This document shows positions 2,219 through 64,000 of a stretch of 64,000 nt of DNA, piece after piece; the first letter of the stretch is position 1, and the number at the start of each line of letters is the position of its first letter. Position numbers and translations under genes: made by a program. Below the pieces are notes generated by a model. The model had not been told where the DNA came from, searched no databases, and saw only the letters and a list, made by a program, of their open reading frames with translations. The stretch is from positions 25,677 through 89,676 of the forward strand of contig JBBAPZ010000016.1 in assembly GCA_040400605.1 (NCBI GenBank), given 5' to 3'. Source of the DNA: Candidatus Sericytochromatia bacterium (lineage in GTDB: Bacteria > Cyanobacteriota > Sericytochromatia > S15B-MN24 > JAQBPE01).

Positions 2219-3094
2219 ATGATGTCGATGGAGACCCCGGCGATCGCGTGGTTGGATGGCAACATTCTTGCGCTCGCCGATGCGAAGTGTCGGGTTGAGG
2301 ATCGTGGGTTTTTGTTTGGTGACGGTGTCTATGAGGTGGTGCGTGCCTATGACCGTCAGTTGTTTGCAGCCGATGCCCACTGGTTGCGTCTGCGGCATAG
2401 CGCGCAAGGCATTGATCTTGAGTTGCCGATGTCACTTGAAGAGATTGCAGGGATCGCGGAAAACCTGCTGATGCGCAGTGGGTTGCGTGATGCGGAGATT
2501 TACGTTCAAGTAACCCGCGGTGCTGCCCGGCGTAACCATTTGTTTCCAACGAACACCCCCCCGACGTTGCTGATCTGGGTTCAGGCGCCCCGCTTGCCGT
2601 CCGTCGATCTCAAGGCAACGGGCGCCAGTGTCGTGACCTTGCCGGATGAGCGGTGGGCCCGTTGTCACCTCAAGACCATCAGTTTATTGGCGAACTGTCT
2701 CGCCAAAGAGGAGGCACGCCGGCGGGGTTGTGATGAAGCGATCCTGGTGCGTGATGGGTGGGTGACAGAGGGAACGAGCTGCAATGTCCTGCTCATTCGG
2801 GGTGATTTGATCGTGACACCCCCAACGGATCAACGCATTCTTCCCGGCGTCACGCGTGCGTGTGTCTTGGATCAGGCACCAAATCTCGGCATGGCCGTCG
2901 TGCAACGGCCGATCGCAGTCGGCGAACTTTTCGACGCGGATGAAATCATCCTGACAAGCACAATCATGGAATTGATGCCCGTACGGGTCATCGATGGATC
3001 TTTGGTGGGCGCAGGCCGTCCCGGGCCTGCATACCGAACGTTGGCGACCGCTTACAGTGAGCTGACGCATCGACAACTGCCATCTCCAAGCTGA
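2219..3094 (+). CDS. dat: Class IV PLP-dependent aminotransferase, D-amino-acid aminotransferase-like
   Basis: EDRGFLFGDGVYEV, YVQVTRG, RWARCHLKTISLL, VTEGTSCN, ILPGVTR; start placed at ATG 2219 after GAGG. Confidence 0.85.
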   Translation: MMSMETPAIAWLDGNILALADAKCRVEDRGFLFGDGVYEVVRAYDRQLFAADAHWLRLRHSAQGIDLELPMSLEEIAGIAENLLMRSGLRDAEIYVQVTRGAARRNHLFPTNTPPTLLIWVQAPRLPSVDLKATGASVVTLPDERWARCHLKTISLLANCLAKEEARRRGCDEAILVRDGWVTEGTSCNVLLIRGDLIVTPPTDQRILPGVTRACVLDQAPNLGMAVVQRPIAVGELFDADEIILTSTIMELMPVRVIDGSLVGAGRPGPAYRTLATAYSELTHRQLPSPS

Positions 3095-3282
3095 ATCGGT
3101 ACCCACGTCGAGGTTAATGGCTTCGCGAACGGAAGCGCAAGGTCCCCAGAAGATGCATCAACGTGGCTGGCAAGCGTTCAATGATTGGCAGGTCAACAAG
3201 CCTGTTTGGTTTTCAGAAACATCATTTTGTTTATTTGAGGGACCGTGCTACGATGGGCCATCGACAACGGGGTGAGGGTCAA

Positions 3283-4515
3283 ATGAGTCGTTTTGAAGAG
3301 ACCAACTATTATTTTCGACGGGCCGCAGCCGTGATGGATTTGGGTGAACGGATTCAGGCACTTTTGCTGAATCCTTACCGTGAAATTATCGTCACCATTC
3401 CACTTGAGCTGGATAGCGGCGAAATCTCAACGTTTACTGGATACCGGATTCAACACAACAATTCGCGTGGTCCATTCAAAGGCGGCTTGCGCTATCATCC
3501 GCAGGTGGATCTGGAAGAATCCAAGTCCCTGGCGTCTTTGATGACGTGGAAGACGGCCGTCGTCGAAGTCCCTTTCGGTGGTGCAAAAGGCGGCATCACG
3601 GTGGATCCAGCGCGACTGAGTCCCCGGGAGAACGAGCGACTGACGCGCAAGTTCATCCAGCAACTGCACGAAAACATTGGGCCCATGAAAGACATTCCTG
3701 CACCCGATGTTAATACAAACGGTCAGGTGATGGCGCACATCATGAGCGAATACTCCAAGTACTATGGTCATTCACCGGGGGTCGTGACGGGCAAACCCCT
3801 GGCACTGCATGGCTCGGAAGGGCGTGAGGAGGCCACGGGGCGAGGTGTTGTTTATGTGACGGAAGAGGCGTTACGTCTACAAAATAAGGCCGTTTCGGAC
3901 AGTCGGTTTGTGGTGCAGGGATTCGGAAACGTGGGTTCGCACACGTGTCGCCTGCTTCACGAACGCGGCGGGCGCGTGATTGCGACCAGCGATGTTTTTG
4001 GGGCGATTCACAATCCGGCAGGACTGGACATCGCTGCGCTCTTGGCGTGGGTGGCTGCGAATGGCACGGTGAAGGGCTTTCCACACGCGAGCGCCATCGA
4101 TGCAGGCGAGTTGCTGACCTTGCCGTGCGATGTGTTGATTCCCGCTGCGTTGGGACATGTGTTGACGCGGGACAATGCGCAAGACGTTCGCGCGTCGATG
4201 ATTGTGGAGGCAGCAAATGCACCAATCACACCAGAAGCGGATGAGATTTTTGAAAAAGCCGGCGTCATAGTCATACCCGACATATTGGCCAACGCCGGCG
4301 GGGTTACCGTATCGTATTTTGAATGGACACAAAACATTCAACAGTTTACCTGGGGTGTCGATAAAGTGAATGAAGAGTTGCAGCGCATTATGTTGCGCGC
4401 GTTTCAGACTGTTTACAGGGTGGCTCTCGAGAAGAAGCTCAGCATGCGTACGGCAGCGTTTGTTGTGGGAATCGGCCGCGTGGGTAAAGCAACCGTCTTA
4501 CAGGGTATTTCATGA
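3283..4515 (+). CDS. gdhA: Glu/Leu/Phe/Val dehydrogenase (glutamate dehydrogenase)
   Basis: GPFKGGLRYHP, PFGGAKGG, DIPAPDVNT, GREEATGRG, QGFGNVG, PDILANAGGVTVSYFEW. Confidence 0.93.
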   Translation: MSRFEETNYYFRRAAAVMDLGERIQALLLNPYREIIVTIPLELDSGEISTFTGYRIQHNNSRGPFKGGLRYHPQVDLEESKSLASLMTWKTAVVEVPFGGAKGGITVDPARLSPRENERLTRKFIQQLHENIGPMKDIPAPDVNTNGQVMAHIMSEYSKYYGHSPGVVTGKPLALHGSEGREEATGRGVVYVTEEALRLQNKAVSDSRFVVQGFGNVGSHTCRLLHERGGRVIATSDVFGAIHNPAGLDIAALLAWVAANGTVKGFPHASAIDAGELLTLPCDVLIPAALGHVLTRDNAQDVRASMIVEAANAPITPEADEIFEKAGVIVIPDILANAGGVTVSYFEWTQNIQQFTWGVDKVNEELQRIMLRAFQTVYRVALEKKLSMRTAAFVVGIGRVGKATVLQGIS

Positions 4516-4585: not shown

Positions 4586-5125
4586 ATGGAGATGACCGTG
4601 GCACCTGCAGCATTTTATGAATTGTCGTTGTTTGGCGGCATGAGTCCGGAGGAAGTGGATGCAATTGGTCGCTTGGCGACATTGATGCGTGTTCCTGCTG
4701 GTTCTCCGTTGTTTCTGGAGGGTGAGCAGGCGGCTTTTCTGGATATCATTTGGAGTGGCCAAGTTGAAATTGGAAAGTTGGATCGTGACGGCAACCCGCA
4801 GCTCATTGCACACATCCATGCGCCAGGCGTCGTTGGTGAAATGAGTGTGTTGAGTCACGGCAGTCGGAGTTGTACAGGGATCGCGGTCACCGAACTCGAA
4901 GTTTACCGCATCGCGCGGGAAGACTTTACATCACTGTTGGAGGCCGGGCATCTGGCAGCATACAAGGTGGGTTTAAACCTGGGACGCGTGATGAGTGCTC
5001 GCCTGCGTGCGATCGATGAAAAAGTGGTCAGTTTATTAACGACAAGCAAAGAAGTGGAAGCGGTCGAAACGCCGAGCGAGTTTGCAGCATTTCGCACAAA
5101 GCTATTCTCGGAATGGGTGTTCTGA
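4586..5125 (+). CDS. Stand-alone cyclic nucleotide-binding domain protein
   Basis: LFLEGE...IIWSGQVEI...VVGEMSVL...RSCT cNMP-binding pattern; SD AAGGAGG before ATG 4586; no obvious HTH. Confidence 0.82.
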   Translation: MEMTVAPAAFYELSLFGGMSPEEVDAIGRLATLMRVPAGSPLFLEGEQAAFLDIIWSGQVEIGKLDRDGNPQLIAHIHAPGVVGEMSVLSHGSRSCTGIAVTELEVYRIAREDFTSLLEAGHLAAYKVGLNLGRVMSARLRAIDEKVVSLLTTSKEVEAVETPSEFAAFRTKLFSEWVF

Positions 5126-5494: not shown

Positions 5495-5752
5495 CTAGCC
5501 GTAGTGGGGCAATGCTTCCGTATCTTGCGTCAGGCATTGTCGCACGCGGTCAACGTGACTGGTGTAAAGGCGTTTTTCCGCTTGATCGAAGACCAGATGG
5601 ACCTGGTTTGCCAGTTCGACCGTGCCACGGTAAACGATTTGCTGTCCTGGTTCGAGTGTGAGTGTTTGAGCACTTGGTCCGAGTGACAGATTGAAAACGG
5701 TGGGTTCAAGCACCCGGTGGATCCGATCGACTTGAAAGTGAAATGCCCCCAA
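5495..5752 (-). CDS. Small hypothetical protein (85 aa)
   Basis: Strong SD AAAGGAGG before TTG; fills the gap between dapF and the ferredoxin on the same strand. Confidence 0.65.
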   Translation of the reverse strand: MGAFHFQVDRIHRVLEPTVFNLSLGPSAQTLTLEPGQQIVYRGTVELANQVHLVFDQAEKRLYTSHVDRVRQCLTQDTEALPHYG

Positions 5753-5785
5753 GGGAATCCTCCTTTGTTTGCGTATCTGCCCCTA

Positions 5786-6637
5786 TCAGTTTAGCAGTTG
5801 GAATCGACCTTTAAACACAAACCGGGCATTTCCGGTCAAATACACGTGGTGATTGTCCTGCCAGGTCACCAGCAAAGTGCCACCGGGCAGCGTGACAGTC
5901 ACCGTTCGTTTCAGGCACTCATTCAGTACGCCGGCAACGACGATGGCGCAGGCTCCCGTCCCGCACGCCATGGTTTCGCCGACGCCCCGTTCCCATACAC
6001 GGGCCCGAACCGCGTGTGGGCTCACACGTTGGACGAACTCGACATTGGCGCGATCCGGGAACATAGGGTGACAGGACAACAAGGGTCCCCATTGGTCAAC
6101 AGGGGTGCTGTCCAGAGCGTCGACCCAGACAACGGCGTGAGGATTGCCCATCGATAAAGCCGTGATCGCCCACGTCTGATCGCCAATCACCAGCGGATAT
6201 TCGGCAATCCGCGTATCAAGTGGTCCAATCGCCGGAATATCCTGACAGGCCAGTTTTGGTTGCCCCATATCCAAGGTGATGTCACCACCGTTGGTCAAAA
6301 CGGCGTGACGCAGGCCATCGCGGGTCATGATGGGCCCTTGCTCATTGGGTTGCCAGGGCCAACGTTGCTGATCCACCAGATAGCGCACCACACAGCGCAA
6401 GCCATTGCCACACATCCCGGCCTCACTGCCGTCTGCATTGATTACCGTCATGCGAAACAGGTCTTGCGTGTCCTGACTCACCAACAAGACCCCATCAGCC
6501 CCGATGCCGCCACGCCGATCACAGATTCGAGACGCCAGTGACGCCCAGTCAAGCCCTGAGACGTCCTCAGCATCAATTACAATAAAATCGTTGCGGGTGC
6601 CTTCGTATTTGTAAAAAAGCAATTCCCCATCATTCAT
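5786..6637 (-). CDS. dapF: Diaminopimelate epimerase
   Basis: FYKYEGTRNDF, GIGADG, NADGSEAGMCGNGLRC, MGNPHAV, ERGVGETMACGTG. Confidence 0.95.
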   Translation of the reverse strand: MNDGELLFYKYEGTRNDFIVIDAEDVSGLDWASLASRICDRRGGIGADGVLLVSQDTQDLFRMTVINADGSEAGMCGNGLRCVVRYLVDQQRWPWQPNEQGPIMTRDGLRHAVLTNGGDITLDMGQPKLACQDIPAIGPLDTRIAEYPLVIGDQTWAITALSMGNPHAVVWVDALDSTPVDQWGPLLSCHPMFPDRANVEFVQRVSPHAVRARVWERGVGETMACGTGACAIVVAGVLNECLKRTVTVTLPGGTLLVTWQDNHHVYLTGNARFVFKGRFQLLN

Positions 6638-6704
6638 CAATCCTACCCTCCAATAGGCCGTCATCTGATATGTCAAAATTAACTGGGGTGCATCAAATGA
6701 AACC

Positions 6705-7634
6705 CTACGAACCGATAACCCAACGTTGAATGAGTTGCCCAGCCTTTAACGCGATTGAGTCAATGGGTTCCGCTGGATCCCTTGACAGCCAGTGGACCCG
6801 GGAATCCGCTCGAAACCAGGTCAACTGACGCTTGGCATACTGCCTGGTGTGCTGCGCCATCAAGGCGATCGCCTCGTCGCGGGAACACTGACCCTGCAAA
6901 AATCGGGCGATTTCGGCGTAACCCAAGGTGGCTAAAAGCGGATGATCCCACCCCCAACGCTCGCCTATCCGTGCGACTTCGGCTTCGAAGCCGGCATCGA
7001 GCATGCGCTCCACCCGGGCATCGATCGCCTCAAACAAGCGTGGCCGAGACACACCCACCCCGATCATCAGCAAGCGATACGGACACGCTTCCGTGCGTTG
7101 CAGTTCGCTGATGGGCGTCTTTGTCAGATGATAAACCTCTAGCGCGCGAATCAAACGGACCCGGTCATTGGGATGCAAACGCGCCGCAGTGACAGGGTCA
7201 ACCTGACTCAATTGCTCATGCAGGTTTTCCAGCTTGGCCAACGATGCCCGCAACGCACTGTTTGGTTCTCCAACCGGGAGACTCAATCCATCCAACACCG
7301 CACGGACATAAAGCCCGGTGCCGCCGACCAAAAACGGCAGGTATCCCTGTGAACGTCGATGCGCAATGGCTTCCTTGGCGAGGCTTTGAAAGCGTTTGAC
7401 ACTAAAGGTTTCATCAGGGCTGACCACATCGATCAGATCGTGCGGCACCGCTTTTTGCTCACAAGGGGTGGGTTTCGCTGTCCCGATGTCAAAACCCTGA
7501 TACACTTGCCGCGAATCCGCGGAGATAATGGCACCACGTTGGTGCTCGGCCAAATGCAAGGCCAGTGCCGACTTTCCGCTGGCGGTCGGCCCCACAATCA
7601 CGACCAGGGGAATGCCGGTTGGATCACCCAACAC
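6705..7634 (-). CDS. miaA: tRNA dimethylallyltransferase (start codon uncertain)
   Basis: GPTASGKS, ISADSRQVY, DIGTAKP, VGGTGLY, TRQYAKRQLTWF. Confidence 0.95.
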   Translation of the reverse strand: MLGDPTGIPLVVIVGPTASGKSALALHLAEHQRGAIISADSRQVYQGFDIGTAKPTPCEQKAVPHDLIDVVSPDETFSVKRFQSLAKEAIAHRRSQGYLPFLVGGTGLYVRAVLDGLSLPVGEPNSALRASLAKLENLHEQLSQVDPVTAARLHPNDRVRLIRALEVYHLTKTPISELQRTEACPYRLLMIGVGVSRPRLFEAIDARVERMLDAGFEAEVARIGERWGWDHPLLATLGYAEIARFLQGQCSRDEAIALMAQHTRQYAKRQLTWFRADSRVHWLSRDPAEPIDSIALKAGQLIQRWVIGS

Positions 7635-7835
7635 CAGTTCGGATGGCGGACCAGGATATTCATCACGAAACGCAGCGCACACACATGCACAATAATGCCC
7701 GCGCCCAAGACCGGTCAAGTCATCATCGCATGAGGGGCCATGGTTGGGTCCGGGTTCAAGTAGGGGTGATCGCCGTTGGCGCCATGTCGTTCACTGCGGA
7801 AAGTGGGTAAGATAGTGCAGGAGGATGCCCAGGCA

Positions 7836-8966
7836 ATGCCAGAATTTCAAATGGGTGCAATGCACAAAGTGCAAAACATCGTGCAGTTGAAACGTTTAAT
7901 GTTGCCTGTGCCTACCTTGGCCGCCACTGACAGCGTGAGTCGGGCGTTGCACGTGATGGCCCGTTCGCAGGCATCCGTGTTGCCGGTTGTTACCGGCACA
8001 TCACTGGTTGGCGTGGTGGCTGAAGTGGATTTGTTGGTGTGGATGATTCGGCAACGGGGTTCGCTGGGGTTTCTCGACCCTGACAAGGCCCACGATGCGA
8101 TGGTGATACAGGTCATGACCTCATCAGTTGCAGTGGGCTACGCGGAAGAAACACTCGACACGGTTTTGCCCCTGTTTGAAGAACGTCGGCTCAAAGCGAT
8201 TCCTGTGCTGGACACGCTGGATCGTTATCAGGGCATGTTGACCCGTCAAAGCGTGCTCGATGCTGTGACGCATCAGGCAAAGCCACCGCACATCGCGGGC
8301 CTGGCAACCTTTTGGGGCATACGTTTAAGCAATGGTGTCACACACACCGGTGTGCCGGATCGTTTGTTGGTGGCACACGGTGCCTTCTTAGCGTGGATTT
8401 TGCTCTCGGCACATGCTCTGGCACACGTGGTGCTGCCGAAAGTTGGCCCGTGGTATCTGGCTTTTTTTCCGGCTGCTGTCTGTATCGTGGCGCTTCTAGG
8501 GGTGATGCGTTTCAGTTCGTGGTCAGGCTATCACGCGGCGGAACATCAAGTGATGACGGCCATTGAGCGCACGGAAACGCTGACACCTGAAACGGTACGG
8601 GTGATGCCACGCATTCACGCGGATTGTGAGGCACGGGTGAGCATTCTGGCCGGTTTATTGACACTGCTGTTGTCCTTTTCGAAACTTGACGCCCGCGTCG
8701 CGATTGCACTGCTCACGGTGGCCTGGTTGGGACAACACCGCATGGCCTTGTGGCTCCAACGCCATATCGCGACCCGTCCAGCCAGTTGGAAACAGATCGT
8801 CCATAGCGTTGCGGTCGCCACCCAGTTGTTGCGAGAGCCGATGCTGTGGCCCGATGTGCCGATCGGCTGGTGGCAGCGTCTGTGGCACCAAGGCGTGCTC
8901 AGCATGGCATCCGGCGGGGCAATCGCCTGGATTGTGTGGACGACTGTGGGACTTTCCCGACATTAA
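7836..8966 (+). CDS. CBS-pair protein fused to a DUF1385-like membrane domain
   Basis: Two CBS repeats (LPVV...LVGVVAEVDL; IPVLD...YQGMLTRQSV) followed by TM segments and YHAAEH...LTPETV...PRIHADC, resembling the DUF1385 YHGAEH...RxHPRC motif. Confidence 0.7.
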   Translation: MPEFQMGAMHKVQNIVQLKRLMLPVPTLAATDSVSRALHVMARSQASVLPVVTGTSLVGVVAEVDLLVWMIRQRGSLGFLDPDKAHDAMVIQVMTSSVAVGYAEETLDTVLPLFEERRLKAIPVLDTLDRYQGMLTRQSVLDAVTHQAKPPHIAGLATFWGIRLSNGVTHTGVPDRLLVAHGAFLAWILLSAHALAHVVLPKVGPWYLAFFPAAVCIVALLGVMRFSSWSGYHAAEHQVMTAIERTETLTPETVRVMPRIHADCEARVSILAGLLTLLLSFSKLDARVAIALLTVAWLGQHRMALWLQRHIATRPASWKQIVHSVAVATQLLREPMLWPDVPIGWWQRLWHQGVLSMASGGAIAWIVWTTVGLSRH

Positions 8967-61128: not shown

Positions 61129-61240
61129 TACCATCCTTTAGCAAGCCTGTTCATTTGTAGGCGTTCACGTCCCCCTGTGAAAACGCGGAATTGCATCACA
61201 TTCAGATGCCGAGCGTGCTGACTTGTGGTTCAGATGCGGC

Positions 61241-61474
61241 ATGAATCCCGATGTCAGTTTTCGCGTGGATCCCCAGCAATTAAACGCCACGAGAGCCAAG
61301 CTGGAGGAACTTGAATTGAGCCTTGGCGCCCTTAATGGCCTTGCAAGCCGTTGTTATGACGACACGTTAATAATGTTGACACGGCAATTGGGGGTGCTTG
61401 GTGACACGACGTGGCGTGCTGGTTTCAGGTCATCCGTGATGCTTTCACCCGATGACGATGAGATACCGTTTTAA
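61241..61474 (+). CDS. 77-aa hypothetical helical protein ending in DDDEIPF
   Basis: Open ORF followed directly by a terminator; weak SD; C-terminus resembles the SSB tail. Confidence 0.6.
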   Translation: MNPDVSFRVDPQQLNATRAKLEELELSLGALNGLASRCYDDTLIMLTRQLGVLGDTTWRAGFRSSVMLSPDDDEIPF

Positions 61475-61490
61475 TGTATAAGGCCACTTT

Positions 61491-61521
61491 CCGCATCCCG
61501 TGACAGGGGTGCGGTCTTTTT
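61491..61521 (+). terminator. Intrinsic terminator
   Basis: CCGCATCCC / GGGTGCGG stem followed by TCTTTTT. Confidence 0.7.
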
Positions 61522-61529
61522 AATGGATG

Positions 61530-61965
61530 CAGTCAAACAAGTCGTGTCGCGTCTCAAAGACGATGTTTGGTACTCACTGAATGTGGGTGGCGCCAGAGCA
61601 GGGCTCCCGAATGCCCGCAGCGTGCAAGGGCAAGCGGGATAAAGGCTGCGACCGGGCCCACCCCGGTAACTGCCATCGTGACAATGACGCAACACCTGCC
61701 GGTCAACGCTGAGCGTGGCACCTCAATCTCGGCAATGACATCTGCACACCCAATTTGCAACCACCAAAAAAACGCGGATTTACACCACCGCTAACAGAGG
61801 GATCCCCCGCGGGGGACAGCGACTCTGTCGACATCTCGTTTCTCCTCCCATCGCGTGAACTGATACAATGGCTATTCAGGCGCGATGGGGCGACTTATGC
61901 CGCGTCCACTAAGTCGGAAAATCTCTCACTAGATGGAGGTGACACCCGGCGCTCCCTGTCAACGT
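61530..61965 (-). mobile_element. Possible highly degenerate, internally deleted IS110-family relic with structured non-coding end
   Basis: GGAGGAG SD + ATG 61834; fragments FFGGCKLG, MAVTGVGPVAAF and SEYQTSS in different frames, in IS110 motif order. Confidence 0.35.
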
Positions 61966-61999: not shown

Positions 62000-62352
62000 A
62001 GGGCAATCCGGCCGCTAGTTTTAGGCCGGGTGAATTATCTGGGGTCTCGTTCACGCCGCGGCACTGAGGTGCTTGCCATCATCTCGACCCTGGTCGAATC
62101 CGCAAAACGATGTGGGGTTCCGCCGGAGGCTTATCTCTTGGCTGCTGCCGAACATGCACTCACCAAAGCAGGGAATGTGTTGTTACCGGATGAATTTAAG
62201 CGCGAAATCGAGAATCTACGGGCACCGCCCAATACTGGGTGAAAGGGTTGAAACTGATCCGTCCAAAAGACAATACCCCCTGCCAACGAATGGCTAGGGG
62301 GTGAAACTGCTTTGACTTAACTTGTCAACAGACGGGAACGGCGAGTACTTAC
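62000..62352 (+). mobile_element. IS66-family remnant: transposase C-terminus (to 62242) and right terminal inverted repeat
   Basis: RAIRPLVLGRVNYLGSRSRRG...TLVESAKRCGVPPEAYL; end GACGGGAACGGCGAGTACTTAC (IS66 ends read GTAA...TTAC). Confidence 0.85.
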
Positions 62353-63386: not shown

Positions 63387-64000
63387 CGGAATGTGTCAAC
63401 AAGTTGAGACAATTTTGGTTGGAAAAGTTCCTATGTTTGCTACCTTTTTCAGGGCATTTTGGGGAGGGCCAACTCCTCCGCCTTCGCTTTTGAGGGCTCC
63501 GGCGGGTCGTTGGCGTCTACCCGCGCAGCTAAGGCCGGTGGGTTGATCCAGACTGCCTCAGGAAGTGCCGGTGGTTGAGACACACCCTTTACAAACCGTT
63601 CAGGGTGAGTCCCATAAGCGAAATTGAGGGCTGCCATGCAAACCTGTTGAATCTGCGTTGCTTTGCCATAATGAACCTGTTCGGGGGTAAAATACCCGAT
63701 CCCGCCGTGGTGGTGTTCACTGTTGTATCGGTTGAAAAATTGACGACAGAATGCGTTGGCATCCTCCATCGAGCCAAACGATCCCGGAAACGTCGGGGCA
63801 TATTTAACGGTTTTAAAATTAGATTCTAAAAATGGATTGTCATTGCTCGTGTATGGCCTGGAGTGACTTTTTACCACCCCCAGGTCAGCCAAGAGTTGTG
63901 ACAGTCATCGCCCTGCCGCGATCGGCGTGGATGCATAGTGAACCTGGTGTAATGCCTTGTTTTTCGCACGTCTCTGCGATCATGCGCTCAGCCAAGACGG
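63387..64000 (-). mobile_element. IS3-family element (partial) with frameshifted transposase pseudogene and right end
   Basis: IHADRG, LADLGV.KSHSRP..SNDNPFLESNFKTVKY, HPERFV, WINPP; +1 frame break at about 63902; end TGTCTCAACTTGTTGACACATTCCG (63411-63387). Confidence 0.85.

Follow-up and report, generated by a model that had tools for sequence, protein, structure and literature searches.

A 77-residue open reading frame (ORF) at positions 61241-61474 of the forward strand of the window, by which we mean the whole stretch of 64,000 nucleotides analyzed, is almost certainly the terminal gene of a four-gene element of the IS21 family, and its product ends in an acidic tail that resembles the C-terminal docking peptide of SSB (SSB-Ct). 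This tail protein is apparently an undescribed kind of accessory protein on a variant IS21 element. A decoy or adaptor for SSB partners, as proposed in a first-pass annotation of this DNA, is still the best functional idea that the sequences offer, and we tentatively read the tail protein as an adaptor through which the transposing element would engage the SSB-partner enzymes of its host. What makes the ORF interesting is the element family to which it points, and not the window copy itself, which is probably a dead remnant.

Coding status and tail of the 77-residue protein

The frame at 61241-61474 (+) contains zero internal stops and closes on translation with PDDDEIPF, exactly as first annotated; the strand opposite to it carries 3 stops. 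Comparison of the window copy with the intact copy on contig L011, described below, gave a dN/dS of 0.24 (8 synonymous changes over 52.8 sites and 7 replacements over 175.2 sites; Fisher p = 0.009), and hence, the frame coded for a protein and was under selection. The genome encodes two full-length SSBs, with the tails LDDEIPF (contig C11, L002) and DDGMPF (contig C12, L001). The last six residues of the 77-residue protein, DDEIPF, are those of the C11 SSB, so that a comparison suggested at first annotation came out in favor of the proposed likeness. A third, partial match to PF00436 was noted on contig C3. Among 13,693 ATG-started six-frame ORFs of 40-115 aa in the genome, a single one ended in two acidic residues plus [ILV]PF, and 38 passed a looser test for an acidic ending with Phe; the acidic-IPF tail of the 77-residue ORF exceeds chance.

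As judged from sequence, the ending DDDEIPF places acidic residues and a hydrophobic-Pro-Phe triplet at the extreme C-terminus, as an SSB-Ct mimic should. An AlphaFold2 model, built from a shallow alignment (7 sequences), consists of a single predicted helix (residues 11-66) followed by a low-confidence tail. The tail region had low pLDDT and no predicted secondary structure both in this model and in that of the main protein family described below, which is consistent with a flexible, exposed tail. No match to the OB fold (PF00436) was obtained and the model is all-helical, in agreement with the earlier view that the protein is too short and too helical for such a fold. Clamp motifs of the QL[S/D]LF or QLxLxF type are absent from the window protein, and searches of Pfam, NCBIfam, PDB sequences and the ESM Atlas returned no family name for the tail proteins.

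A database search for close homologues found a single other cluster, whose 6 members are 88-91% identical to the window protein. The tail is kept in all six (IPF in five, MPF in one), which answers favorably the question, raised at first annotation, of whether the terminal IPF is conserved. No match to the 77-residue protein was found in 60 related genomes, and a scan of viral contigs with a close homologue gave one match of 15 residues. Among P0002, P0006, P0007, the copy at 26141-26284 on contig C28 and the window copy (61241-61474), a segment of 7 residues flanked by two AGF repeats is variably present or absent; the underlying in-frame indel of 21 bp lies between short direct repeats and does not affect the frame of the tail.

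The N-terminus had also been likened to WXG100 proteins. Members of that family (PF06013) are about 100 aa long and carry a central W-x-G at the turn of a helical hairpin. The window protein had no Pfam match to it at E up to 1, its model is a single helix, and its nearest approach to the motif is a W-R-A-G at residue 58. As for a type VII secretion context, the ORF sits in an IS21 element, and a search for WXG100 genes in this 94.6% complete genome found none. The WXG100 idea was therefore dropped, since the protein falls into no Pfam or NCBIfam family and lacks W-x-G, and the genome has yielded no WXG100 gene.

The intact element and its remnant in the window

L011 is a metagenome contig whose flanks are about 99% identical to this genome, and it carries the intact element. 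The element is 3,503 bp long and contains, in this order, a Cys-rich ORF, istA, istB and the tail ORF, with overlapping genes: istA (5645-7246) overlaps istB (7243-8004), and the ATG of the tail ORF overlaps the istB stop. IstA, the DDE transposase, scored 254.8 bits against NF033546 (cut-off 160), and IstB, the AAA+ ATPase, scored 223.3 bits against NF038214 (cut-off 200) and also matched PF01695. The terminal inverted repeats (TG…CA) have 33-nt arms at 5051-5083 and 8521-8553 that are 79% complementary. No target-site duplication was seen around the L011 element, and the sequences on its two sides match separate contigs of the genome to which the window belongs, which indicates that the insertion site was rearranged or mis-joined.

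The Cys-rich protein encoded at L011:5265-5747 is found upstream of istA at most loci of the lineage (alignment A7). It is 130-160 aa long. Eight of its Cys are invariant (CxxC-x6-CxxC-DxG…C-xxx-C plus a distal CxxC), and it also contains a VTHxG motif and a helix rich in Arg. Pfam returned no family above noise for it, and its gene is often unannotated on plasmids. This putative zinc protein may act in the IS21 lineage as a DNA-binding regulator or as a target selector.

In the window, the right-end remnant of this element spans 564 bp (61233-61796, +) and is 92% identical to positions 2943-3503 of the L011 element. The gene that the first-pass annotation took to be free-standing at the edge of an IS-rich region is thus itself part of an IS21 element, in a truncated copy. 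The right terminal inverted repeat (61764-61796, +; 33 bp, ending CA) matches L011 8521-8553, the arm that pairs with L011 5051-5083. An 80-bp piece of a different dispersed repeat (61154-61233, +) abuts the break in place of the istB end; it has matches of 76-88% on contigs C3, C4, C7 and C35 and shorter ones on C5 and C6, and is presumably an IS66-type end. A weak match to the IS66 C-terminal Pfam domain, below cut-off, lies at window 62030-62242, and an rve_3 integrase fragment lies at window 63449-63892, near the contig end.

A terminator-like hairpin with a T-run lies 3' of the ORF (61491-61514, +) and is retained in the intact element. The claim that the ORF has its own terminator holds to this extent, whereas the hairpin alone is not above chance, because shuffled sequence gave 1.4 +/- 1.1 terminator-like sites and the region itself has 2. 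The non-coding right end that includes this hairpin (322 bp; L011:8231-8553, window 61475-61796) is 92% conserved. An Rfam scan of the intact element gave a sub-threshold snoRNA match only. In a metatranscriptome (one run, 0.04 word share), we found a 211-nt contig over the stop and terminator, which covers the first part of the 322-bp right end, and a 35-nt piece of istA; these constitute no evidence of expression.

The same element is represented in the assembly by six left ends and nine right-end matches, several of them at contig edges, and no istA or istB of the L011 type is assembled in this genome. Because only the right 564 bp are present, without istA, istB or a ribosome-binding site, the window copy is probably silent. 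It is very unlikely that this copy has been domesticated, such that the host keeps and expresses a stand-alone SSB-tail peptide. Domestication would fit a break that falls 8 nt 5' of the ATG and leaves frame, tail and terminator all intact, as well as a second remnant, on contig C28, that also retains the tail. However, the window copy has lost the G-rich ribosome-binding site seen in the intact element, and no sigma-70-like promoter was found for the ORF. The window copy also carries 6 replacements and one inserted codon that are private to it in comparison with six other copies, which fits decay after truncation. In addition, the absence of the protein from the 60 related genomes searched, and the commonness of right-end remnants of the same element in this genome, count against domestication.

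Tail proteins behind the ATPase genes of two transposon groups

To place the tail gene in its lineage, 80 GTDB loci were collected by IstB alone, and L011 was added. A complete ORF started near the istB stop at 61 loci; 50 of these ORFs were at most 90 aa long, and 43 of the 50 ended in Phe, duplicates included. In a strict slot test, an ORF of at most 115 aa with a terminal Phe and at least two Asp or Glu among the 7 preceding residues was required at loci with at least 350 nt of room. The test was passed by 34 of the 78 lineage loci with room (104 distinct IstB overall) and by none of the 30 more distant IS21 loci that had been collected with the family model (Fisher p about 1e-6, which is overstated since kin are not independent). 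The repeated presence of an acidic, Phe-ended tail at this position in elements of the IS21 lineage strengthens the originally proposed SSB-tail likeness. The remaining 44 of the 78 loci with room failed the test, the slot being empty in some and taken by other genes in others, and the tail gene is therefore dispensable. An alternative third gene, with the motif FGWLE.RLL and winged-helix-like by eye, follows istB mostly in elements of Planctomycetota and Chloroflexota (L025, L035, L060, L076, L079, L085, L140, L141 and L142). Yet another family occupies the slot in L036, L082 and L095, and an ORF that is CHC2-zinc-finger-like by eye does so in L069.

The commonest body family (alignment A4) comprises 44 distinct sequences; three duplicates and the different bodies of L011, L061 and L084 were omitted from the 50 small ORFs. 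Its model shows one helix and a disordered tail, and its main body has conserved aromatic positions. Twenty-seven of the 44 genes start at an ATGA overlap. Phe is the last residue in 39/44, PF ends 17/44 and [DE][ILV]PF ends 7/44; when the tails are right-justified, the consensus is F-D-D-D-I-P-F, to be compared with DDDIPF in SSB-Ct, so that individual members match it loosely. The tail is missing in L056, L058, L061, L091 and L118. Of 19 pairs examined, 5 were saturated, and dN/dS was below 0.3 in 11 of the 14 computable ones. These data establish the position of the tail-protein gene, its coupling, its coding constraint and the conservation of its tail. No clear tracking of tail and host SSB tail was seen in nine host pairs compared by eye. 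A search of 1.84 billion representatives at E up to 0.001 returned 1,667 clusters (50% identity) for this family, which has no Pfam, NCBIfam or PDB match. The family also matched 23 plasmid records, and in both of the 2 inspected, the gene adjoins the 3' side of istB and is labeled 'hypothetical protein'. A tandem-duplicated helical body with a single tail occurs in P0008, P0009, P0013 and P0152; to judge by these sequences, two bodies sharing one tail hint that the single-domain form is a dimer whose helices pair with each other.

A clamp-like motif precedes the tail in 14 of the 44 A4 sequences, against 2.1 +/- 1.3 in shuffles (maximum 7). A stricter pattern was found in 22 of the top 150 database matches, against 1.6 +/- 1.2 in shuffles. 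Both counts are to be read with the fact that the patterns were written after inspection of the sequences and that the profile used to rank the top 150 matches included the tail. The consensus clamp motif is given as Q-L-S-L-F/L in the accessible text of one study (PMC3971601) and as Q-L-x-L-F in that of another (PMC4549789). Insertion orientation relative to local GC skew showed no bias (8/17 sites, with skew over 12-20 kb being noisy and sites sharing genomes), which argues, at low power, against a fork-directed choice of target.

The A4 profile was also used in a reverse search of 702 genomes (401 Pseudomonadota-side and 301 Myxococcota-side). All 17 loci found (17/17) lie directly behind a transposon ATPase. 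Seven of them follow a lineage IstB, four of these being already in the IS21 set, and the other ten follow an ExeA-type AAA_22 ATPase. At 9 of the 10 ExeA-type loci, a Mu-like transposase or a remnant of one lies upstream, and 8 of the 10 tail proteins end in Phe. This second group, of about 3.5-3.7 kb, combines a Mu-like DDE transposase, an ExeA-type AAA_22 ATPase and the same tail protein; it was noted in L254 and L257 and also in L220, L221, L223 and L242-L248. The contigs of L254 and L257 look like whole elements beginning with TG, with matching inverted ends in L257 and, in L254, a different, Cys-rich first gene of its own. With ten reverse-search loci behind ExeA-type ATPases and two contigs resembling whole elements, the layout of the tail gene recurs with an unrelated ATPase.

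Acidic tails with a final Phe are used by replisome proteins of phages, and some of the tails found here end in GDF or ADF instead of IPF. Both points would suit a passenger gene with a host-benefit role unrelated to transposition, such as interference with phage replication proteins. We consider such a role highly improbable, because the gene keeps a fixed slot and translational coupling behind the ATPase in two transposon groups, and no stand-alone copy was present among the 17 reverse-search loci.

The body that carries the tail differs between elements. No significant homology was detected between the body of the window protein and the A4 family (hhalign 4.3%, z about 1, with 28 of 300 shuffles scoring equally; P = 0.08 for the best register), and profile tests against the L096/L097/L061 family were likewise not significant. 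Because these bodies are not detectably homologous and the window protein lacks the clamp motif, the evidence from the A4 family reaches the window protein only through position and tail. In genomes of the same order or the same family, L096 and L097 have a further body in the slot, with the tails EQLDLPF and DGDELPF, and L099 has yet another, with the tail PEEELPF. The L096/L097 body has 10 database matches, of which the 9 new ones end in ELPF (two), EVPF, QLDLPF, IDDLF, D/E-rich sequence without Phe (three) and RPS (one). The tail is carried in the slot behind istB by four or more bodies among which no relationship could be detected. In a tree of IstB, from which 18 of 122 loci were dropped for a duplicate or short IstB, 42 rows of the main family group as one clade (SH-aLRT 98); L011 is not part of it and joins L096 and L097 with weak support.

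Free exchange among at least four unrelated bodies, and likewise the service of one body to two unrelated ATPases, fits a function that resides in the tail and needs no specific partner in the element. On both grounds, a decoy, the main rival reading, is nearly as good as an adaptor: a free protein might compete with SSB for partner enzymes and never touch the transpososome, for example by shielding transposition intermediates from ExoI, RecQ or RecJ, or by slowing forks. We nevertheless regard a decoy as rather unlikely. Aromatic positions are conserved in the main body, which is under purifying selection, and tight coupling to a weakly expressed IS operon should, from general knowledge, yield few molecules relative to cellular SSB.

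The partner of the acidic tail could also lie within the element. IstB of this lineage has a very basic C-terminal stretch and the zinc protein an Arg-rich helix. The tail might serve as a DNA mimic or plug on such surfaces (the Lys/Arg-rich C-terminal helix of IstB or the basic helix of the zinc protein) and tune transposition, its likeness to SSB being incidental. The many tails that deviate from IPF would agree with this internal regulation, which we judge doubtful. Charge alone leaves unexplained the terminal Phe in 39/44 and the F-D-D-D-I-P-F consensus, as well as the recurrence of the tail on unrelated bodies and behind ExeA-type ATPases and the clamp-like motif; moreover, IstB tails are basic also where the small gene is absent.

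A proposed adaptor and its relation to known systems

The reading that we prefer, with the hesitation noted at the outset, is an element-encoded adaptor. In the intact element, the tail protein would be made together with IstB, and its short amphipathic helix, probably self-paired, would display the flexible acidic tail, whose free C-terminal Phe would copy the SSB docking peptide. The tail may then occupy the SSB-Ct pocket of host enzymes such as PriA, Pol III chi, DnaG, ExoI and similar proteins, and in some members, an adjoining motif of the Q-x-x-L-x-F type may bind the beta clamp. Host gap-repair or fork-restart machinery could thereby be brought to the strand-transfer product, a task for which Mu and other transposons rely on factors of the host. 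Such a model predicts binding by the tail protein, dimer formation, attachment to the transpososome and an effect on transposition. We favor the adaptor because the partners of SSB-Ct, whose sequence is DDDIPF, include DnaG, Pol III chi, PriA and ExoI (accessible text of PMC5872125), and because the strand-transfer product of phage Mu is resolved by PriA-dependent restart (accessible part of bioRxiv 10.64898/2026.05.30.728999). The related elements that support the adaptor are not independent samples. A complex prediction with IstA, IstB, the zinc protein and two copies of the tail protein of L021 scored 0.00, which speaks neither for nor against binding.

More broadly, the tail proteins may belong to an unnamed, widespread class of transposon micro-adaptors, an idea in which our confidence falls a little short of even. 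Its members would have 60-110 aa and a constant, SSB-like tail, some with a clamp-binding motif, and would be encoded behind the unrelated ATPases of the IS21 lineage and of Mu-like/ExeA-type elements. Their role would be to pass the product of strand transfer on to the replisome or repair enzymes of the host, with at least three exchanges of the body under a tail that persisted.

With the IS21 family (IstA and IstB; e.g., IS5376, in the accessible text of PMC11208146), the L011 element shares NCBIfam-passing IstA and IstB, overlapping istA and istB, and TG…CA repeats. It differs in being 3.5 kb long and in having two extra coupled genes, one before istA for the Cys-rich protein and one after istB for the tail protein. 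According to the accessible text of PMC10293859, no target selector has been reported for IS21. In the parts of the literature that were accessible, we came across no account of IS21 elements with a third or fourth gene, and none of an SSB-tail mimic carried by a transposon; the supplements of PMC10293859 on TnsC-neighbor genes might list such families.

Like SSB-Ct itself (PMC5872125, accessible text), the tail of the window protein is predicted to be flexible and has an acidic run followed by a free hydrophobic-Pro-Phe end. Unlike SSB, the tail protein has no OB fold or DNA-binding domain and is transposon-borne, and the tail is more degenerate across the family. The nearest published mimics are prophage DUF669 proteins with a DDDIPF tail (accessible text of PMC13687109), which are likewise mobile-element proteins proposed to mimic the SSB C-terminus. 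Whereas DUF669 proteins are phage proteins related to ssDNA and have a folded domain, the tail protein is a mini-helix in an insertion sequence. Natural peptides with an SSB tail or a clamp motif would be useful probes of a hub that is studied as an antibacterial target.

Known links between transposons and host replication run via the beta clamp, and a gene that copies the SSB tail, if true, would be a second route. TnsE of Tn7 binds the beta clamp. Clamp-binding transposases and accessory factors have also been described for IS66 (TnpB/TnpC), IS200 and IS1634 (PMC3971601 and PMC4549789, accessible text). The main tail family likewise appears, from its enrichment in QLxLF-like sequences, to be a transposon-borne carrier of a short motif aimed at a replication hub. 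In contrast to those transposases, the motif here sits on a separate protein of 58-80 aa beside an SSB-like tail, the window protein lacks it, and insertion shows no orientation bias.

According to the abstract of a 2026 preprint, the hand-over of DNA intermediates from transposons to host enzymes is 'poorly investigated'. Phage Mu, with MuA and MuB, likewise combines a transposase with an AAA+ ATPase and has its product handed to host replication and repair enzymes. In Mu, this hand-over is performed by host ClpX and IF2, and the accessible part of bioRxiv 10.64898/2026.05.30.728999 does not mention an element-encoded SSB-tail adaptor. Set beside these systems, the SSB-tail proteins of IS21 elements suggest an undescribed way for transposons to engage the replication and repair enzymes of their hosts.
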